From NCBI GenBank assembly GCA_019749945.1, contig JAIEPF010000016.1:13596-77595 (forward strand): a DNA stretch of 64,000 bases. Reading direction: 5' to 3'. Every line of letters begins with the position of its first letter. Within the stretch, counting starts at the first letter, position 1. The position numbers and the translations under genes were made by a program. Source of the DNA: Burkholderiales bacterium. GTDB lineage: Bacteria > Pseudomonadota > Gammaproteobacteria > Burkholderiales > SG8-41. Under the pieces are notes generated by a model, which was given only the letters and a program-made list of their open reading frames with translations, did no database searches and was not told the DNA's origin. This document shows, piece by piece, positions 28,006-35,686 of the stretch.

Positions 28006-29205
28006 ATGGCGGTGAGCAGCGAGCGATTTTATTCCGCATTGCCTGTGATCACCGACTTCGAGGCGATCACGCTTGCGGAGAGTTATGCGGCATTGCCCGA
28101 CGACTGGCATGTCGCGTTGTGCGACGTGCGCAATTCCACCGCCGCGGTCACCGAAGGCAAATACCGCAACGTCAATTCGATCGGCGCCGCAGCGATCACC
28201 GCGATCATCAATGCCGCCGGTGAGGTCGAGGTGCCGTTCAGTTTCGAGGGGGACGGCAGCCTGGTGTGCGTACCGCAGCAGTTGCTGGAGGTTACCCGCG
28301 CTGCACTGGCAAAGACACAGCAGGTCGCACGCGATGCCTTCGGCCTTGATCTGCGCATCGCGACGGTGCCGGTGACGGCTATTCGCGCCGCTGGGTTTTC
28401 GGTGCGGGTGGCGCGTTACCGCGTTTCCGAGAACTATATACAGGCGGTGTTTTCCGGCGGCGGTGTTGCCTGCGCCGACAGCCTGATCAAGGACCCGGCC
28501 ACCGAGGCGATATATGCCATCGCGCCTGGCAGCGTGGAGCCGCGCGGCAGCTTCGACGGTTTCGAGTGCCGCTGGGAGGATATACCCAGCCGCCACGGTG
28601 AGACGGTGAGCCTGATGGTGCTGGCGCTGCATTACGAACCCGAGCGTGCGGCGGCGGTGTACCGCGAGGTGATCCGCAAGGTGCGCGAAATTTACGGTGA
28701 CGAGGATGCCTGTCATCCGGTGTCGGTGCCGCAGCTGGCGATGACGCTGAAGTCGGATTTGCTTGCCGACGAACTGGGCGTGCGCACCGGCAAGGCTGGG
28801 GGATTTGACCGCTGGCGGCGGCTGATGAAAACGCGCGGGATCGTGCTGCTGGGCAGAGCGCTGATGCATTTCGGCATGCAAACCGAGGAAACCGACTGGA
28901 GTCAGTACAAGGCGACGCTGGCGCGCAACTCCGACGTGCGCAAATTCTCCGATGTCTACCGGCAGATTCTCGCCGGTAACGAGGCGCAGCGGCTGGCGCT
29001 TGATGCCTGGCTGCAGCAGCAGTTCAAGCGGCGCCAGTTGTTGTACGGTCTTCACGTCACTGATCGCGCCCACATGACCTGCCTGGTGTTCGATTATTCC
29101 GGCCGCCATCTGCATTTCATCGACGGCGCCGACGGCGGGCTGTTTCTCGCGGCCAAGGCGTTCAAGGACCGGGCGAACCAGTACGTCAGCCGTACCGGAG
29201 TCTAG
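28006..29205 (+). CDS. DUF3095-like protein (possible nucleotidyl-cyclase-type fold)
   Basis: 399 aa. The N-terminal pattern FYSALPVITDF...W.VALCDVRNSTAAV..GKYRNVN..GAA.I.A..N....E.PF.FEGDG recalls DUF3095 as I remember it. Confidence 0.65.
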   Translation: MAVSSERFYSALPVITDFEAITLAESYAALPDDWHVALCDVRNSTAAVTEGKYRNVNSIGAAAITAIINAAGEVEVPFSFEGDGSLVCVPQQLLEVTRAALAKTQQVARDAFGLDLRIATVPVTAIRAAGFSVRVARYRVSENYIQAVFSGGGVACADSLIKDPATEAIYAIAPGSVEPRGSFDGFECRWEDIPSRHGETVSLMVLALHYEPERAAAVYREVIRKVREIYGDEDACHPVSVPQLAMTLKSDLLADELGVRTGKAGGFDRWRRLMKTRGIVLLGRALMHFGMQTEETDWSQYKATLARNSDVRKFSDVYRQILAGNEAQRLALDAWLQQQFKRRQLLYGLHVTDRAHMTCLVFDYSGRHLHFIDGADGGLFLAAKAFKDRANQYVSRTGV

Positions 29206-29351
29206 AACAGAGAACAACATAACCTGTTGTTATTAAAAGATATTTTATTCTATACCGTCGGACACCAGTTTTGCTTTCATCGGGGCTGGCGTGTATTGTC
29301 ATTTTCATGACGATCCGGACGCCGATCCGACGCCACCAGGGAGAGAGAACC

Positions 29352-30317
29352 ATGACGCATCATTTGCCGAAGCTGCTGTTTGCAGTTGCCGCAGTGGTTT
29401 CGTTGCAGGTCACGGCACAGGATTACCCGACACGCTCGATCCGGGTGGTGGTGCCGTTTCCGCCGGGCGGCGCCGGCGACACTCTGGCGCGGCTGATTGC
29501 GCCGCCGGTTTCAAAAGCGCTGGGCCAGAACATGGTGATCGAAAGCCGCACCGGCGCCAACACCGTGATCGCCACCGAGGTCGTGGCGCGCGCGCCGGCC
29601 GACGGCCATACCCTGCTGGTGATGGCGACGAGTTTCACGGTGAATCCGTTCGCCTATTCAAAACTGCCTTATGACACGCTGCGCGATTTTCACGGCGTGA
29701 CGCGGATGGTCTATAACCCGCTGATTTTCTGTACGCATCCGTCACTGCCGGTGAAAACCATGAAGGAACTTGTGGCGCTGGCGAAGGCGCGGCCCGGCGA
29801 GCTGACCTGGGCCGTGTCGAGCATCATCGGCGGCGGCCGCATTGCCGGGGAGCTGTTCAAGGAGATCGCGAAAATCGACATGATCAACGTGCCCTATGGC
29901 GGCGGCGCGCCGGCGGCGACCGCAGTCCTCGGCGGTCACACCAGCATGATCGTCGGCAATGTGCTCGAGTGCGTGCCGCACGTATTGTCGGGCAAGTTGC
30001 GCGGCATCGCGGTGACCTCGGCGCAACGCGCCGAGATTCTGCCGAACGTGCCGACCGTGGATGAATCGGGGTGGCCGGGTTTTGAGTCACTGAACTGGTT
30101 CGGCATCGTGGTCCGCGCCGGCACGCCGCGGCCGATCATCGAGCGCTTGTCAGGAGAAATCGGCAAGTCGCTGCAGACACCGGAGGCGCGCACGGTGCTG
30201 ATGAAGCAGGGTTTTACCGCAGGCACAATGACGCCCGCAGACTACGACGCCTACATCCGCAACGAGATGCAGCGCAACGAGAAAATCCTGAAAAAACTGA
30301 ACCTGAAGCTCGATTAG
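29352..30317 (+). CDS. Bug family substrate-binding protein
   Basis: Signal peptide, then QDYPTRSIRVVVPFPPGGAGD. Start chosen at the ATG after GGGAGAGAG. Confidence 0.85.
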   Translation: MTHHLPKLLFAVAAVVSLQVTAQDYPTRSIRVVVPFPPGGAGDTLARLIAPPVSKALGQNMVIESRTGANTVIATEVVARAPADGHTLLVMATSFTVNPFAYSKLPYDTLRDFHGVTRMVYNPLIFCTHPSLPVKTMKELVALAKARPGELTWAVSSIIGGGRIAGELFKEIAKIDMINVPYGGGAPAATAVLGGHTSMIVGNVLECVPHVLSGKLRGIAVTSAQRAEILPNVPTVDESGWPGFESLNWFGIVVRAGTPRPIIERLSGEIGKSLQTPEARTVLMKQGFTAGTMTPADYDAYIRNEMQRNEKILKKLNLKLD

Positions 30318-30380
30318 CCCGGAAATAAAAGCAGAAATGCGGCAGCGGTGCGGCCCGACCGGGCGGCACCATGCATCAGG

Positions 30381-30956
30381 TCAGCGCATTTTTTCCAGCA
30401 CTTCGAGCAGTTCATCGTTGGGCATGATGCCGCGGGGATCTTCAACCTTGGCGTAGCGGATGACCCCCTCCCTGTCGATGATGAACCATGAGCGTTTCGC
30501 GCGCAGGTAGCCGGCGATGCGCTTGGCATCATTGGCCATTGCCGGATTGTCGTTGAGCACGCCGTAATCACGGGTCATTATCCGGCGCGTGTCACTCAGC
30601 AACGGGAACTTCAGGCCGAGTTTTTCGGCGAACACCGTATTGGCGGCGTTGAAATCGACACTGATGCCCAGAACCTGGGCATTGGCGGCCTCGAACTTGG
30701 GGAGATCAAGCTGGAAGGCCACGATTTCGGTCGTTCAGGTGTCGGTGAAGGCGCCGATATAGAAGAACAGCACCACGTTTTTCTTGCCGAGATAATCGGC
30801 AAGCGCCACCGGTTTGCCGGTGGATGAGATGACCGAAAAGGCGGGGGCCTTGTCGCCAACCTTCAGGGTCTGCGCCTGGGCAGTCCCGGCGAACAGCGCA
30901 GCGCTTCCCAGCAAACCCGCCGCGATCCAGCGTTGCAACAACGACATCCGGGACAT
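30381..30956 (-). CDS. Exported peroxiredoxin (AhpC/TSA-Bcp type) with an in-frame TGA at the peroxidatic position; candidate selenoprotein
   Basis: ORFs 30735-31058 and 30381-30722 are in the same frame and separated only by TGA (30735-30737). The readthrough gives VVLFFYIGAFTDT-U-TTEIVAF, matching the Prx motif FTxxCxxE. Signal peptide present; AGGAGG before ATG 30956. No other Cys after the signal peptide. Confidence 0.7.
30687..30720 (-). other. Candidate SECIS-like hairpin for the Prx-like gene (weak)
   Basis: Interrupted 12-bp hairpin GGCCUUccAGCUUG-AUCUCCC-CAAGUUcGAGGCC starting 14 nt after the UGA. The loop lacks G. A tighter hairpin AUGCCCAG-GUU-CUGGGCAU lies further downstream (~52 nt). 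Confidence 0.25.
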
Positions 30957-30981
30957 GGAGCACCTCCTGTGGTGGTGAAAA

Positions 30982-31512
30982 TCATTGTTTGGCGAGTTTG
31001 CGCGCGTAATTGCGCAGCACCTGGCCGTCAAAATCGACGTGGCCCAGGCCGCGCGCATTGATCATGCCCTTTTTGTCGACGATCACGGTGGACGGCACGC
31101 CGCGTACGCCGAAGCCGCGCGCAACATCCATGTTCTGATCAAGCAGTGCGGGCAGGGAATAGCCGCCCTTGGCGAACACCGGTTTGACCGCGGCCTCGCC
31201 GGTGCCGTCGATGGAAATGGTGATGACGTTGATGCCGTCTTTTTTCAGCTCGTCATGTGCCCTCTGCACGGAGGGCATTTCGCGGACGCAGCTACTTCAC
31301 CAGGAGGCCCAGAAGCGGATCACCGTGACCTTGTTGCGCAGGTCGGCATCGCTGCCGCTGGTGCCGTTGAGCCCCGGAAGCTTGAACACCGGCATGGGAA
31401 CCGGTGGTGAAACCGGCGCCAGCGTATCGCCGAGCGCAGGTTGTGCCAGTACGAAGCCGAACATGCAGCACGCGGCAATCAGGGATTTGAGGCTTGTCGT
31501 TGTCAGGGGCAT
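30982..31512 (-). CDS. TlpA/ResA-like thioredoxin-fold thiol:disulfide oxidoreductase with an in-frame TGA in a UxxC motif; candidate selenoprotein
   Basis: ORFs 31297-31545 and 30982-31278 are in the same frame and separated only by TGA (31297-31299). The readthrough gives VIRFWASW-U-SSCVREMP, matching FWAxWCxxCxxEMP. Hydrophobic N-terminal leader. Start is ATG 31512 (GGGAG upstream) or 31545. Confidence 0.7.
31258..31277 (-). other. Candidate bacterial SECIS hairpin for the TlpA-like gene
   Basis: The mRNA segment UGCCCUC-CGUGCA-GAGGGCA forms a 7-bp perfect stem with a G-containing 6-nt loop. It starts 19 nt downstream of the UGA. Confidence 0.4.
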
Positions 31513-31665
31513 GGGAACTCCCGTAATTAACAGCGTGGTTAACATCTGTCCCGGGGATTCTAATCCGAATGACGCCTTGGCGAAGGTTTACGATGCGGCC
31601 CGTTCGTTGGTTGTCATGGACAGGGCCCCGGCGGTCGCATGCGCGCGACGCCTGGGTAATCCAGA

Positions 31666-32628
31666 TTACTGCGGTTCGATGCCCGCAGCCTTGGCGATAT
31701 CAGCGAAACGTTTGACGTCAGCGCGGAACTGCTTGGCCCAGACTTCCGGCGGATCGCCGTTGGGCTCGTAGCCGTTGTCGATGAAGTGGGCATGGATCTT
31801 CGGCTCCTGCAGCGCCTTGTGGATGGCCTGCTGCAGTTTCCTGGCGACGGGCATCGGCATTTTGGCTGGACCGAACACGCCGTGCCAGCCGGCATCGGCC
31901 ACGTAACCGTTGACCGTTTCGCCGACGGTCGGGATTTCCGGCAGCGAGGCCAGACGCTTGGCGCCGGTGAAGGCGATGGCGCGGACGCGACCGGCCTTGT
32001 GTTGCGGCACACCGACCGAACCCGCGGGGAAATGCACCTGCACTTCACCGCCGGCAACGGCGGCGACGGCCGGGCCGCCGCCCTTGTAGGGCACATGCAG
32101 CATGTCGATTTTGGCCATGGTGTTGAGCAGCGCGCCCGCCAGATGCTGGCCGTTGCCGACCCCAGCGGTGCTGTAGCGCAAGGGCTGTTTTTTTGCGGCC
32201 TCAATAAGTTCGGCGGTGTTTTTGACCGGCAGCTTGGGATTGACGACGACCAGATAACCCAGGCCGGTGGCGACATTGGTGACCGGCAGGAAGTCGCGAA
32301 CCACATCAAACGGCATTTTTTTCATGATCGCCGGATTCACCGCAAAACCGAACGAAGTGTTCATGATGGTGTAACCGTCGGGGTTGGCATTCTTGACGGT
32401 GTCCGCGCCGACGATGCCGTTGGCGCCGCCACGGTTGTCGATGACGAAAGTCGCACCGAGTTCGGTTTCAACCTGTTTGAACAGCACGCGGGAGAACACG
32501 TCGACGTTGCCGCCGGCGGGGAAAGGCACGATCAGCCGGATCGGCCGGTTCGGGTATTGCTGGGCGATGCAATGGCCCGCCAGTGAGAGCGCAAGCAGGC
32601 CGAGCATAATGGAAATACTGCGCTGCAT
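31666..32628 (-). CDS. Bug family substrate-binding protein
   Basis: Signal peptide, then QQYPNRPIRLIVPFPAGGNVD. GGAGGAG before ATG 32628. Confidence 0.85.
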   Translation of the reverse strand: MQRSISIMLGLLALSLAGHCIAQQYPNRPIRLIVPFPAGGNVDVFSRVLFKQVETELGATFVIDNRGGANGIVGADTVKNANPDGYTIMNTSFGFAVNPAIMKKMPFDVVRDFLPVTNVATGLGYLVVVNPKLPVKNTAELIEAAKKQPLRYSTAGVGNGQHLAGALLNTMAKIDMLHVPYKGGGPAVAAVAGGEVQVHFPAGSVGVPQHKAGRVRAIAFTGAKRLASLPEIPTVGETVNGYVADAGWHGVFGPAKMPMPVARKLQQAIHKALQEPKIHAHFIDNGYEPNGDPPEVWAKQFRADVKRFADIAKAAGIEPQ

Positions 32629-32813
32629 GATGTCTCCTCCGATGTTTTTGAACATGGATGCCGGGTGCGCGGATTTTTGGCTGCGCTTCGTTTGCTGCGT
32701 CACCGACAGGTTCATTTTAGTGGTACCGGCGGTCATGCAGGAAATAAGTTGGGCCGGGCCGGAATCGGGTAATCTGCGCGGCAATCAATGATTGCAGGCA
32801 AAGGGAGTGGAAT

Positions 32814-33893: not shown

Positions 33894-34682
33894 ATGGCTG
33901 CAGACAGGATACTTGCCGGCAAGGAAGGCCCGATCGGCTTCCTGATTTTCAACAACCCCGAGCGCCGCAACGCGGTGTCGCTGGAAATGTGGCAGCGTGC
34001 CGGAGAGGTGCTCACGGAATTTGCCGGCGATGACGGCGTAAGGGTAATCGTGCTGACCGGCGCGGGCGACAAATCCTTCGTCTCCGGCGCGGACATTTCG
34101 AGATTTGAAAGTGAGCGCGCCAATGCGGAGGCGCAGGAAAAATACACCAAGACCTCCTCGGGCATGCGCAAAATACTGCGCGAGGTCGGCAAACCTACCA
34201 TCGCGATGATCCGCGGCTATTGCATCGGCGGCGGCATGTCGCTGGCCTTGAGCTGCGACATGCGCATCTGCTCCGACGACGCCCAGTTCGGCATCCCGGC
34301 GGCGCGCCTCGGCATCGGTTACGGCATCGAAGGCCTGGGCCGGCTGGTGGAACTGGTCGGCCCTTCGGCAGCCAAGGAATTCATCTACACGGCGCGCCGC
34401 TACAATGCCGACGAGGCGCTGCGCATGGGTATCGTCAATCGGGTGTTTCCGGCGCAGGCGCTGGGTGCCGCGGTGCGCGAAATGGCGAACGGCATGGCGG
34501 ACAACGCGCCGCTGTCGATCCTGACCGCAAAACGCGTGGTCGATGAACTGATGAAAGACCCAGCCAAGCGTAATGTCGCGTTGTGCGAACAGTTGGTCAA
34601 GGATTGTGGCGCGAGCGAAGATTTCATCGAAGGCCGCCGCGCGTTCATGGAAAAACGCAAACCGGTGTTCAAGGGGCGCTGA
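33894..34682 (+). CDS. Enoyl-CoA hydratase/isomerase family protein
   Basis: Crotonase motifs (FNNPERRNA, VLTGAGDKSFVSGADI, GYCIGGG). The start is uncertain (33825, 33849 or 33894). Confidence 0.8.
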   Translation: MAADRILAGKEGPIGFLIFNNPERRNAVSLEMWQRAGEVLTEFAGDDGVRVIVLTGAGDKSFVSGADISRFESERANAEAQEKYTKTSSGMRKILREVGKPTIAMIRGYCIGGGMSLALSCDMRICSDDAQFGIPAARLGIGYGIEGLGRLVELVGPSAAKEFIYTARRYNADEALRMGIVNRVFPAQALGAAVREMANGMADNAPLSILTAKRVVDELMKDPAKRNVALCEQLVKDCGASEDFIEGRRAFMEKRKPVFKGR

Positions 34683-34684
34683 TA

Positions 34685-35686
34685 ATGAAGCAACGCAATT
34701 CCGCGTGGTACCGATTCGGCAGGGTTACCGCCGCAGTGTTGTTTGCGGCATGGAGCGGCGCGTCCGTTGCGGCTGACGCAACCAGCGGTTATCCCAATCG
34801 CCCGGTGCGCTTCATCGTCGCCCAGGCTGCGGGCGGTAACGCCGACTTTGTCGCGCGCATGGTTGCTGCCGAGCTGGTAAAAAAACTGGGGCAGCAGTTC
34901 GTGGTTGACAATCGCTCCGGTGGCGGTGGTGGCGTGCTCGCTGCCGACATGGTGGCCAAGGCCAACCCGGATGGCTATACGATGCTGCTCGTCGGCAGTT
35001 CCTTTGGCGTCAATCCCAGCATCTACAAAAAACTGCCTTACGACTCGGAGCGTGATCTTGCACCGATTACGCTGGCGTCCACCGCATCGCAGATCCTGGT
35101 GGTCAACCCCTCCTTGCCGGTGAACACCGTGCAGGACCTGATCAAACTCGCCCAGGCCAGGCCTGGTGAACTGAATTTCGGTTCTTCGGGCAATGGCGGC
35201 GGCCCGCATCTGGCGGGGGAACTCTTTAACCTGATGGCGAAGACGAAGATGACCCACATTCCGTACAAGGGTGCTTCGGGTTCCATTCTTGATCTGCTGT
35301 CCGGACGGATCCAGGTGGTGTTCGCCACCATGCCTTCGGTGATGTCGCACATCCGGTCGAACAAACTGCGCGGTGTCGCGGTGACCAGTCTCGAACGCTC
35401 GGCGCTGGTGCCGGAGCTGCCGACGATTTCCGAGGCAGGGTTGAAGGGATTCCAGTCGGGCACCTGGCAGGGAATATTTGTGCCGCGCGGTACGCCCGAG
35501 CCGATCATCAAACTGCTCAACCGCGAAATCGTTGCTGTCGTGAAATTGCCAGAGGTGCGCAAACGTTTCGAGCTGGAGGGCGGTGTGCCGGTGGGCAATA
35601 CGCCGCATGAATTTGCCGTATGGCTGCACGCGGAAATCGCGAAATGGGCGAAAGTGGTCAAGGCGGCGAACATCACGCTGGAATAG
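34685..35686 (+). CDS. Bug family substrate-binding protein
   Basis: Signal peptide, then SGYPNRPVRFIVAQAAGGNAD. The ATG lies 2 nt after the upstream stop. Confidence 0.85.
   Translation: MKQRNSAWYRFGRVTAAVLFAAWSGASVAADATSGYPNRPVRFIVAQAAGGNADFVARMVAAELVKKLGQQFVVDNRSGGGGGVLAADMVAKANPDGYTMLLVGSSFGVNPSIYKKLPYDSERDLAPITLASTASQILVVNPSLPVNTVQDLIKLAQARPGELNFGSSGNGGGPHLAGELFNLMAKTKMTHIPYKGASGSILDLLSGRIQVVFATMPSVMSHIRSNKLRGVAVTSLERSALVPELPTISEAGLKGFQSGTWQGIFVPRGTPEPIIKLLNREIVAVVKLPEVRKRFELEGGVPVGNTPHEFAVWLHAEIAKWAKVVKAANITLE

Follow-up and report, generated by a model that had tools for sequence, protein, structure and literature searches.

The DNA analyzed here is a 64,000-nucleotide (nt) stretch from a bacterium of the Burkholderiales (hereafter, the window; GC content 61.4%). 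Its reverse strand carries a cassette of two adjacent, co-oriented genes encoding thioredoxin-fold proteins, each with an in-frame UGA codon at a redox-active position. The downstream gene encodes a peroxiredoxin of the AhpC/TSA family, and the upstream gene a TlpA-like protein. On the basis of the comparative data presented below, we consider it very likely (with a probability of about 0.85) that the product of the downstream gene is a secreted protein (periplasmic or envelope) from the BCP/PrxQ-AhpE branch of peroxiredoxins, with a predicted selenocysteine (Sec, U) as its peroxidatic residue.

The reading frame of the peroxiredoxin extends from an ATG at 30956-30954 to a terminal TGA at 30383-30381 and contains a sole in-frame TGA, at 30737-30735. 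A first-pass annotation of the window had proposed that two entries in the list of open reading frames (ORFs), 30735-31058 and 30381-30722, share a frame and are separated only by this TGA. The two ORFs were indeed found to lie in one frame, with no further stop between them, and the resulting single frame translates as VVLFFYIGAFTDT-*-TTEIVAFQ...WFIIDREGVIRY. Automated gene callers break it into fragments of 73 and 113 amino acids (aa). The TlpA-like gene ends 25 nt before the start of the peroxiredoxin gene. Hairpins that are candidates for the selenocysteine insertion sequence (SECIS) follow the UGA codon in both genes, two of them (HP1 and HP2) in the peroxiredoxin gene and one in the TlpA-like gene (Table 1).

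Table 1. Coordinates of the cassette features in the window and, in the last row, of the genes for the Cys-containing homologues in their own loci.
Feature	Position	Strand	Basis or remark
Gene for the predicted exported 1-Sec peroxiredoxin	30381..30956	-	191 codons, with one UGA predicted to be read through; Pfam AhpC-TSA match
UGA codon, predicted Sec74, motif F-T-D-T-U-T-T-E	30735..30737	-	Aligns with the peroxidatic Cys
Signal peptide MSRMSLLQRWIAAGLLGSAALFAGTAQA, cleavage site predicted between AQA and Q	30873..30956	-	Inspection of the sequence
Shine-Dalgarno sequence AGGAGG, 6 nt 5' of the ATG	30963..30968	-	GGAG-type motifs in the corresponding position of most homologous loci
Hairpin HP1, SECIS candidate by position	30685..30722	-	Minimum free energy fold, covariation, RNAalifold
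Hairpin HP2, abutting HP1	30664..30682	-	Covariation, lowest synonymous diversity
Gene for the predicted TlpA/ResA-like selenoprotein, motif FWASW-U-SS-C	30982..31545	-	Translation, Pfam; start codon uncertain
UGA codon (predicted Sec) of the TlpA-like gene, N-terminal position of a CxxC-type motif	31297..31299	-	Sequence
Canonical SECIS hairpin of the TlpA-like gene	31258..31277	-	Starts 19 nt after its UGA; compensatory changes
Cys homologues P0048, P0074 and P0064	L073:2681-3247, L074:593-1159 and L075:342-908		

Conservation of the UGA codon and of the RNA structure downstream

A scan of GTDB species genomes identified 68 loci, among them 51 close relatives of the window peroxiredoxin (54-93% identity), a deltaproteobacterial locus (L052, 53%) and a locus from the Terriglobia (L053, 45%). 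A TGA occupies the identical codon in 51 of the 51 close loci, in L052 and in L053. Its presence in all 53 related genomes, over a range of 45-93% identity, excludes a chance TGA. With the window sequence as reference, the 44 codons preceding the TGA gave a median dN/dS of 0.166 and the 90 following it one of 0.160, as in a single ORF under selection. The first-pass annotation had asked whether relatives carry TGC or TGT at this codon; every GTDB relative down to 45% identity presents TGA instead, and Cys occurs separately in three metagenome contigs (~56% identity). A protein database search returned dozens of 113-residue proteins (79-94% identity), all of them starting just after the stop, as well as 'full-length' proteins from JGI with Trp (W) at the site, which are addressed below, and the three genuine Cys forms.

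All the genomes carrying L001-L053 are metagenome-assembled genomes, with no cultured isolate among them. Several near-identical beta-proteobacterial loci are labelled as uncultured Streptomyces, Chitinophaga pinensis, Bordetella parapertussis or Rhizobiaceae, organism names whose implausibility suggests mislabelled or mis-binned records. The closest genomic relative (L018:10001-10578, 93% identity) shows an apparent frame disruption in the region of the signal peptide, where the match has a length not divisible by three and an open frame is seen only from VISSTGK onwards. This disruption is probably an assembly error.

Both of the hairpins described in the first-pass annotation exist in the RNA that follows the peroxiredoxin UGA. 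HP1 starts 12-14 nt after the UGA and comprises an 8-bp lower stem, a CC/C internal loop and a 6-bp upper stem capped by an AUCUCCC loop, with the apical loop beginning 28 nt after the UGA. HP2 starts 52 nt after the UGA and presents an 8-bp G+C-rich stem (AUGCCCAG/CUGGGCAU) with a G-U-N loop (GUU in the window). The 96-nt stretch around and after the UGA has a folding energy of -38.7 kcal/mol, compared with -24.1 +/- 3.1 kcal/mol for dinucleotide shuffles (z = -4.67), and none of the 200 shuffles folds as well.

We analyzed the conservation of this structure in a gap-free alignment of the 93 nt from the UGA onwards, encompassing 52 sequences (49 distinct). The two-hairpin structure is paired in 96.3% of the alignment cells, as opposed to 26-50% when the pairing partners are slid by 1-3 columns, and over the 49 distinct sequences pairing reaches 94.3% of cells in HP1 and 99.7% in HP2. 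Seven pairs, four in HP1 and three in HP2, have changed on both sides, and none of 500 shuffles reaches any of the five measures. RNAalifold independently recovers both hairpins, with an extended HP2 that directly adjoins HP1. Some of the compensatory changes alter the encoded protein, such as CUU...AAG to CUG...CAG in HP1 (Lys to Gln) and AAU...AUC to AAC...GUC in HP2 (Ile to Val). Synonymous diversity is 0.42 upstream of the UGA, 0.26 over codons +1 to +25, 0.19 under HP2 and 0.42 further downstream.

The alignment with Cys-containing homologues recommended in the first-pass annotation pointed in the same direction. The three Cys homologues (Table 1) carry Cys in the UGA column and encode the peptide FQLDLPKFEAANAQV unchanged, yet their RNA pairing has decayed to 17, 13 and 14 of the 22 pairs (9-11 of 14 in HP1 and 4-6 of 8 in HP2). 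The 59-77% of SECIS pairs that they retain could be the decaying fossil of a Sec ancestor. Judging from these sequences, the covariation, the local dip in synonymous diversity and the loss of pairing in the Cys homologues indicate selection on the RNA structure solely in forms with UGA at this codon, as expected of a bacterial SECIS. The first-pass annotation had considered the SECIS evidence for this gene weak, an assessment that these comparative data reverse, making the case for a SECIS strong.

Active site, predicted export and genomic partner of the peroxiredoxin

Pfam searches were performed with the stop codon replaced by Cys. The peroxiredoxin matched AhpC-TSA (PF00578) with 114.2 bits (cut-off 26, E = 4.7e-33) over 123 of the 124 profile positions, and Redoxin at 1.6e-23, in agreement with its initial identification as a peroxiredoxin. 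The nearest solved structures are the Sulfolobus Bcp4-type proteins 2YWN/4G2E (1.9e-24) and 3HJP (1.3e-23), followed by Mycobacterium tuberculosis AhpE (1XVW, ~5e-17). The A-F-T-x-x-C-T-x-E string of the Bcp4-type structures and the Arg of their K-R-x-x-F-[IV]-I-D motif align column for column with the window peroxiredoxin. U74 falls in the column of the peroxidatic Cys of 2YWN and 3HJP and of the Cys of 13 loci (L054-L066, 30-40% identity) that correspond to ordinary BCP/PrxQ genes, with ...TPGC-T... at the UGA column. These alignments locate the UGA exactly at the peroxidatic position, where the first-pass annotation had placed it on the basis of the peroxiredoxin motif.

The predicted catalytic Thr and Arg are also conserved. 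A Thr three residues before U is present in 52 of 52 members, the predicted catalytic Arg is R155, whose surroundings (K-R-S-W-F-I-I-D) align with the 2YWN string K-R-A-V-F-V-I-D, and the corresponding R-x-x-[FIVLY]-[IVF]-[IV]-D motif is found in 50 of the 52 members. In the Cys homologues the Pro of the motif is retained (FFYPGAFTNAC), and YLRPNASVIVVD or YLRADAKVIVVD takes the place of YLRAKRSWFIID, so that the Arg is missing from the canonical catalytic position. Given this absence, they may be functionally divergent proteins and not simple Cys equivalents. An AlphaFold model of the peroxiredoxin was used solely to check that its structural neighbours are peroxiredoxins, and a fold search with this model against the PDB returned peroxiredoxins only.

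Two further predictions made from the window protein hold for the family. By inspection, the N-termini of nearly all 52 members show the basic n-region, hydrophobic core and AxA-type site of a signal peptide, equivalent to those seen in the window. The expected absence of Cys from the mature protein extends in the window to the entire peroxiredoxin, and in 50 of 50 scored members no Cys is found between the VGDKAP motif and the C-terminus.

The upstream TlpA-like protein matches the Pfam families AhpC-TSA, Redoxin and Thioredoxin_8 and has a hydrophobic N-terminus. The stem of its SECIS (UGCCCUC/GAGGGCA) carries a G-containing loop, CGUGCA. The 28-nt element is nearly invariant in sequence, and C-G to U-A and U-A to G-C compensations are observed among 49 sequences. 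In every one of the 48 loci with sufficient upstream sequence, as well as in a JGI contig (L078), a gene with a W-TGA-x-x-C motif is located ~560 nt upstream of the TGA of the peroxiredoxin gene. The adjacent second UGA-containing gene for a thioredoxin-fold protein reported in the first-pass annotation, with its own canonical SECIS, is hence a constant companion of the peroxiredoxin gene in these loci. In the only Cys homologue with genomic context (L073), the neighbour reads W-C-S-I-C and the pair is Cys/Cys. At L052:10184, a predicted Sec peroxiredoxin with TGA and both hairpins has an upstream neighbour with Cys (GATWCSSC), which indicates, at the sequence level, that Sec use in the two partners is not strictly coupled. 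No UxxC or CxxC motif was found within 1.5 kb upstream of the peroxiredoxin in L053.

The cassette consists of just two genes. The genes flanking it (TctC/Bug, DHDPS, LysR, DUF3095 and 2-hydroxyacid dehydrogenase) have unrelated metabolic or transport functions. Those of the TctC/Bug family of periplasmic binding proteins, at 29271-30317 (+), 31666-32784 (-) and 34583-35686 (+), are typical of Burkholderiales. A 399-aa ORF at 28006-29205 (+) is the counterpart of a protein that identical Logan contigs have annotated as DUF3095; in each of the three longer contigs, the DUF3095 gene occupies the second position downstream of the cassette. A promoter and terminator scan of 30200-31900 yielded nothing useful, and a window-wide scan for TGA-interrupted pairs of high-GC3 ORFs produced no third convincing selenoprotein candidate. 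In a JGI contig from sample 3300067032, a DDE transposase gene directly follows the two-gene cassette. This arrangement hints at possible horizontal movement of the cassette, which would be consistent with its occurrence in Betaproteobacteria, Entotheonella, Deltaproteobacteria and Terriglobia.

Points against the selenoprotein reading and alternative explanations

Several results weigh against the reading of this gene as one for an exported Sec peroxiredoxin. Neither HP1 nor HP2 alone cleanly fits the published consensus for bacterial SECIS elements. The HP1 loop (AUCUNCC) contains no G unless the closing G31-C39 pair opens, and the G of the HP2 loop (GUN) lies 60 nt after the UGA, beyond the usual spacing. 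Rfam searches, over the whole window at gathering thresholds and over 30500-31400 at E <= 10, identified no SECIS or other RNA family beyond one tRNA-Met. Among curated NCBIfam peroxiredoxin equivalogs, none reaches its cut-off: the best model, BCP/PRK09437 (NF006960, thioredoxin-dependent thiol peroxidase), scores 73.2 bits against a cut-off of 140, and PrxU (NF040737, the Sec-peroxiredoxin equivalog) 54.8 bits against 270. The Pro position of the PxxxTxxC motif (U-7) is occupied by Ile in 49 and by Val in 3 of the 52 Sec forms. The AlphaFold model, derived from a shallow 16-sequence alignment, has a pLDDT of 71 and an active-site loop of low confidence. ARAGORN detected no tRNA-Sec in the 64-kb window or in 40 loci, tblastn searches with Escherichia coli SelA, SelB and SelD against the window and all fetched loci returned nothing relevant for selA, selB or selD, and no Pfam family of membrane donors of the DsbD, ScsB or CcdA type is present among the annotated neighbours of the cassette. 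A linkage of the Sec machinery to the cassette was rejected on the results of the tblastn and ARAGORN searches. Sec machinery genes are not expected to be linked to the cassette, and for Entotheonella, the source of L043 and L045, a complete complement of genes for Sec incorporation has been reported in a preprint (PMC11703216).

The properties of the two hairpins leave room for more than one assignment of the SelB-binding element. HP1 is taken here as the primary SECIS candidate and HP2 as an accessory element, the reverse being possible. That HP2 is the SECIS bound by SelB, with HP1 acting as a looped-out structured spacer in what is still a selenoprotein gene, is in our estimation a serious minority possibility. 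The 34-nt HP1 core (30720-30687) would then fold on itself and bring the GGUNC loop of HP2 to a normal functional distance from the UGA; with HP1 removed (alignment columns 18-51), the distance from the UGA to the G in the HP2 loop is 27 nt, compared with 28 nt in the SECIS of the TlpA-like gene. HP2 also shows the invariant loop G-U typical of SelB-bound loops, its stem (AUGCCC.../...GGGCAU) resembles that of the partner-gene SECIS (AUGCCCUC-CGUGCA-GAGGGCAC), and it is the more strictly kept of the two hairpins, both in pairing and in synonymous diversity, abutting HP1 directly in the form extended by RNAalifold. However, the loop G and U of HP2 belong to a Val codon, which fixes them as well, and the invariant G of HP1 (column 31), at the 5' edge of the apical loop, is positioned exactly 28 nt after the UGA, so that HP1 could be a normal SECIS. 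Furthermore, the distant Terriglobia member (L053:10139-10235, motif ANTPG-U-TKE) presents a different, single hairpin with a GGC loop (GGCGUAUCA-GGC-UGAUAUCGCC) ~15 nt after the UGA, at the position of HP1, and has no HP2. No precedent for a split SECIS was found in the selenoprotein literature examined.

An alternative that concerns function, and to which we assign a low likelihood, is that the product is a selenoprotein with a peroxiredoxin fold whose role is not bulk peroxide removal. Its substrates could instead be envelope proteins in sulfenylated or selenenylated form, or lipid hydroperoxides; alternatively, it could form a redox relay or sensor with the TlpA-like protein. The substitution of the canonical Pro in all Sec forms and the subthreshold equivalog scores are in line with this possibility, as are the observations that Caulobacter PrxL, a peroxiredoxin-like substrate of ScsB, has no detectable peroxidase activity and that deletion of pprX produces no peroxide phenotype (PMC3322552). 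Nonetheless, PrxL belongs to a different CDD family and lacks the Thr/Sec(Cys)/Arg catalytic residues (PMC3322552), whereas the window protein presents Thr, predicted Sec and Arg at the catalytic positions and has active Bcp- and AhpE-type peroxidases as its nearest solved relatives.

Decoding of the UGA without Sec, either by near-cognate read-through as Trp or Cys or through an alternative genetic code, is highly improbable. It would be compatible with the lack of Sec machinery in the window and fetched loci and with the JGI annotations that give W at the peroxiredoxin UGA codon, but in the one case checked (L078:2059-2634) the DNA of the W form has TGA, so that the W is an artefact of gene calling. 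In the window, TGA acts as an ordinary stop and terminates both cassette genes, and other family members use TGA, TAA and TAG. Moreover, purifying selection acts on the gene, although an enzyme with Trp at the catalytic position would be dead; the conserved RNA structure that is lost in the Cys forms is a signature of SECIS-dependent recoding; and the CxxC motif of the neighbouring gene has a UGA of its own at its redox-active position. Among database entries, P0001-P0010 and others are JGI/IMG calls on short contigs in which the Sec UGA is rendered as Trp, apparently following an alternative-code call.

Finally, a pseudogene or sequencing error, with a nonsense mutation in a Cys peroxiredoxin leaving only a truncated product, would explain why automated callers split the gene in two, but is barely conceivable for a TGA shared by 53 independent species-level genomes and several metagenome contigs, flanked by equal purifying selection on either side and followed by hairpins that show compensatory evolution. 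Pseudogene, sequencing error and reassigned code were rejected on this comparative evidence, encompassing TGA conservation, dN/dS and the use of TGA as an ordinary stop.

A putative two-selenoprotein system for envelope peroxide reduction

The best reading of the cassette, by analogy with a characterized system, is that of a two-selenoprotein envelope peroxide-reduction system, a putative Sec version of the TlpA-PprX pathway. In Caulobacter crescentus, the transfer of electrons from ScsB/DsbD to TlpA and from TlpA to PprX is an experimentally established pathway for peroxide reduction in the cell envelope (Cho et al. 2012, PMC3322552). PprX, a peroxiredoxin of the PrxQ type, is exported and has beta-proteobacterial homologues that would rely on DsbD, the donor proposed for Bordetella and Burkholderia (PMC3322552). 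The cassette shares with this pathway the combination of a PrxQ/BCP-type peroxiredoxin and a TlpA-type thioredoxin-like protein, both exported (by prediction in the window). It differs in that both of its proteins would have Sec at their reactive positions, in their encoding by a single two-gene cassette and in the lack of a resolving Cys in the peroxiredoxin. The likeness of the partner to TlpA is at the fold level only (NF047696, 51.8 bits against 230).

The catalytic scheme that we propose is inferred from the established chemistry of peroxiredoxins and thioredoxins. The UGA at 30737-30735 would be read as Sec by SelB and Sec-tRNA(Sec), with an RNA element within the next 25 codons directing the recoding, and the precursor would leave the cytoplasm by means of its signal peptide. 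The selenolate, activated by the Thr of T-x-x-U and the Arg of R-x-x-F-I-I-D, would then reduce H2O2 or an organic hydroperoxide and become a selenenic acid. Since it has no Cys, the mature peroxiredoxin cannot resolve this selenenic acid itself, and the TlpA-like protein is probably its reductant. Presumably exported and co-transcribed, this partner would attack with the Sec of its U-x-x-C motif to form a mixed Se-Se bond, its Cys would resolve the mixed diselenide to an internal Se-S bond, and a membrane transporter of the DsbD/ScsB/CcdA type, encoded elsewhere, would re-reduce this bond. The specific combination of an envelope relay through an intermolecular diselenide with the Sec-x-x-Cys TlpA-like protein and a composite SECIS, in which HP1 is a spacer presenting HP2 to SelB, is put forward tentatively and is rather unlikely to hold in full.

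Prx (TxxU) and Prx-like (UxxC) proteins of pfam00578 are established selenoprotein families (PMC13188914, PMC2398784, PMC5029168), and among Sec-peroxiredoxins PrxU from Eubacterium acidaminophilum serves as the experimental prototype (Sohling et al. 2001, as cited in PMC13188914). Like PrxU and the Sec-Prx family, the window peroxiredoxin combines an AhpC/TSA fold, a T-x-x-U motif and a SECIS-type hairpin in the coding region just after the UGA. Unlike PrxU, it falls below the NF040737 cut-off, has Ile or Val for the Pro of PxxxTxxU, carries a signal peptide and contains no other Cys. The Sec-Prx family has many Cys homologues (PMC13188914, PMC2398784, PMC5029168), and in marine Global Ocean Sampling (GOS) data Cys peroxiredoxins outnumber Sec forms by ~30 to 1, whereas in this clade Sec forms vastly outnumber Cys forms. 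The clade also departs from the Sec-Prx family in presenting two covarying hairpins instead of one and in its pairing with a UxxC selenoprotein gene (48 of 48 loci with enough upstream DNA). The operon section of a 2026 selenoprotein review, which lists Prx/SelW-like and Prx-like/AhpD-like neighbours, does not include a pairing of Prx with UxxC Prx-like genes.

The partner gene resembles the Prx-like UxxC/UxxU oxidoreductase selenoproteins ('Prx-like 1' of the GOS study) in its AhpC-TSA/Redoxin-type fold, U-x-x-C motif and canonical G-loop SECIS (PMC2398784, PMC13188914), and differs from them in its constant operonic link to a TxxU peroxiredoxin, which was not found in the selenoprotein literature examined. 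The active-site string and Arg motif of the window peroxiredoxin are common to archaeal Bcp4-type proteins (2YWN/4G2E, 3HJP) and to AhpE (1XVW), a 1-Cys peroxiredoxin. In contrast to the window protein, these enzymes are located in the cytoplasm, rely on Cys and retain the Pro of the motif, and relative to Bcp4 the window peroxiredoxin also has a 7-residue insertion (the NDNPAMANDAKRIAG region). The kind of enzyme is hence already known, and the novelty lies in the clade, its predicted export, the pairing with its partner and the tandem-hairpin SECIS. Neither the clade nor the pairing was encountered in the selenoprotein literature examined.

In current annotations both cassette genes are split into four fragments or truncated, as in the 113-aa 'redoxin domain-containing protein', and more than 50 uncultured species are predicted to carry two unrecognised selenoproteins; a curated model of the clade would fix their annotation. 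The two covarying hairpins constitute a natural test of the reach and structure through which a bacterial SECIS acts, and a Cys-free peroxiredoxin with a UxxC reductant would provide a clean system for the study of Se-Se and Se-S exchange. If true, either a diselenide relay or a composite SECIS would add a mechanism so far undescribed among bacterial selenoproteins. The proposed system would extend the single characterized envelope peroxide-reduction pathway, TlpA-PprX, to an all-selenium version, implying that some freshwater and soil Burkholderiales, as well as Entotheonella, spend selenium on the protection of their periplasm.

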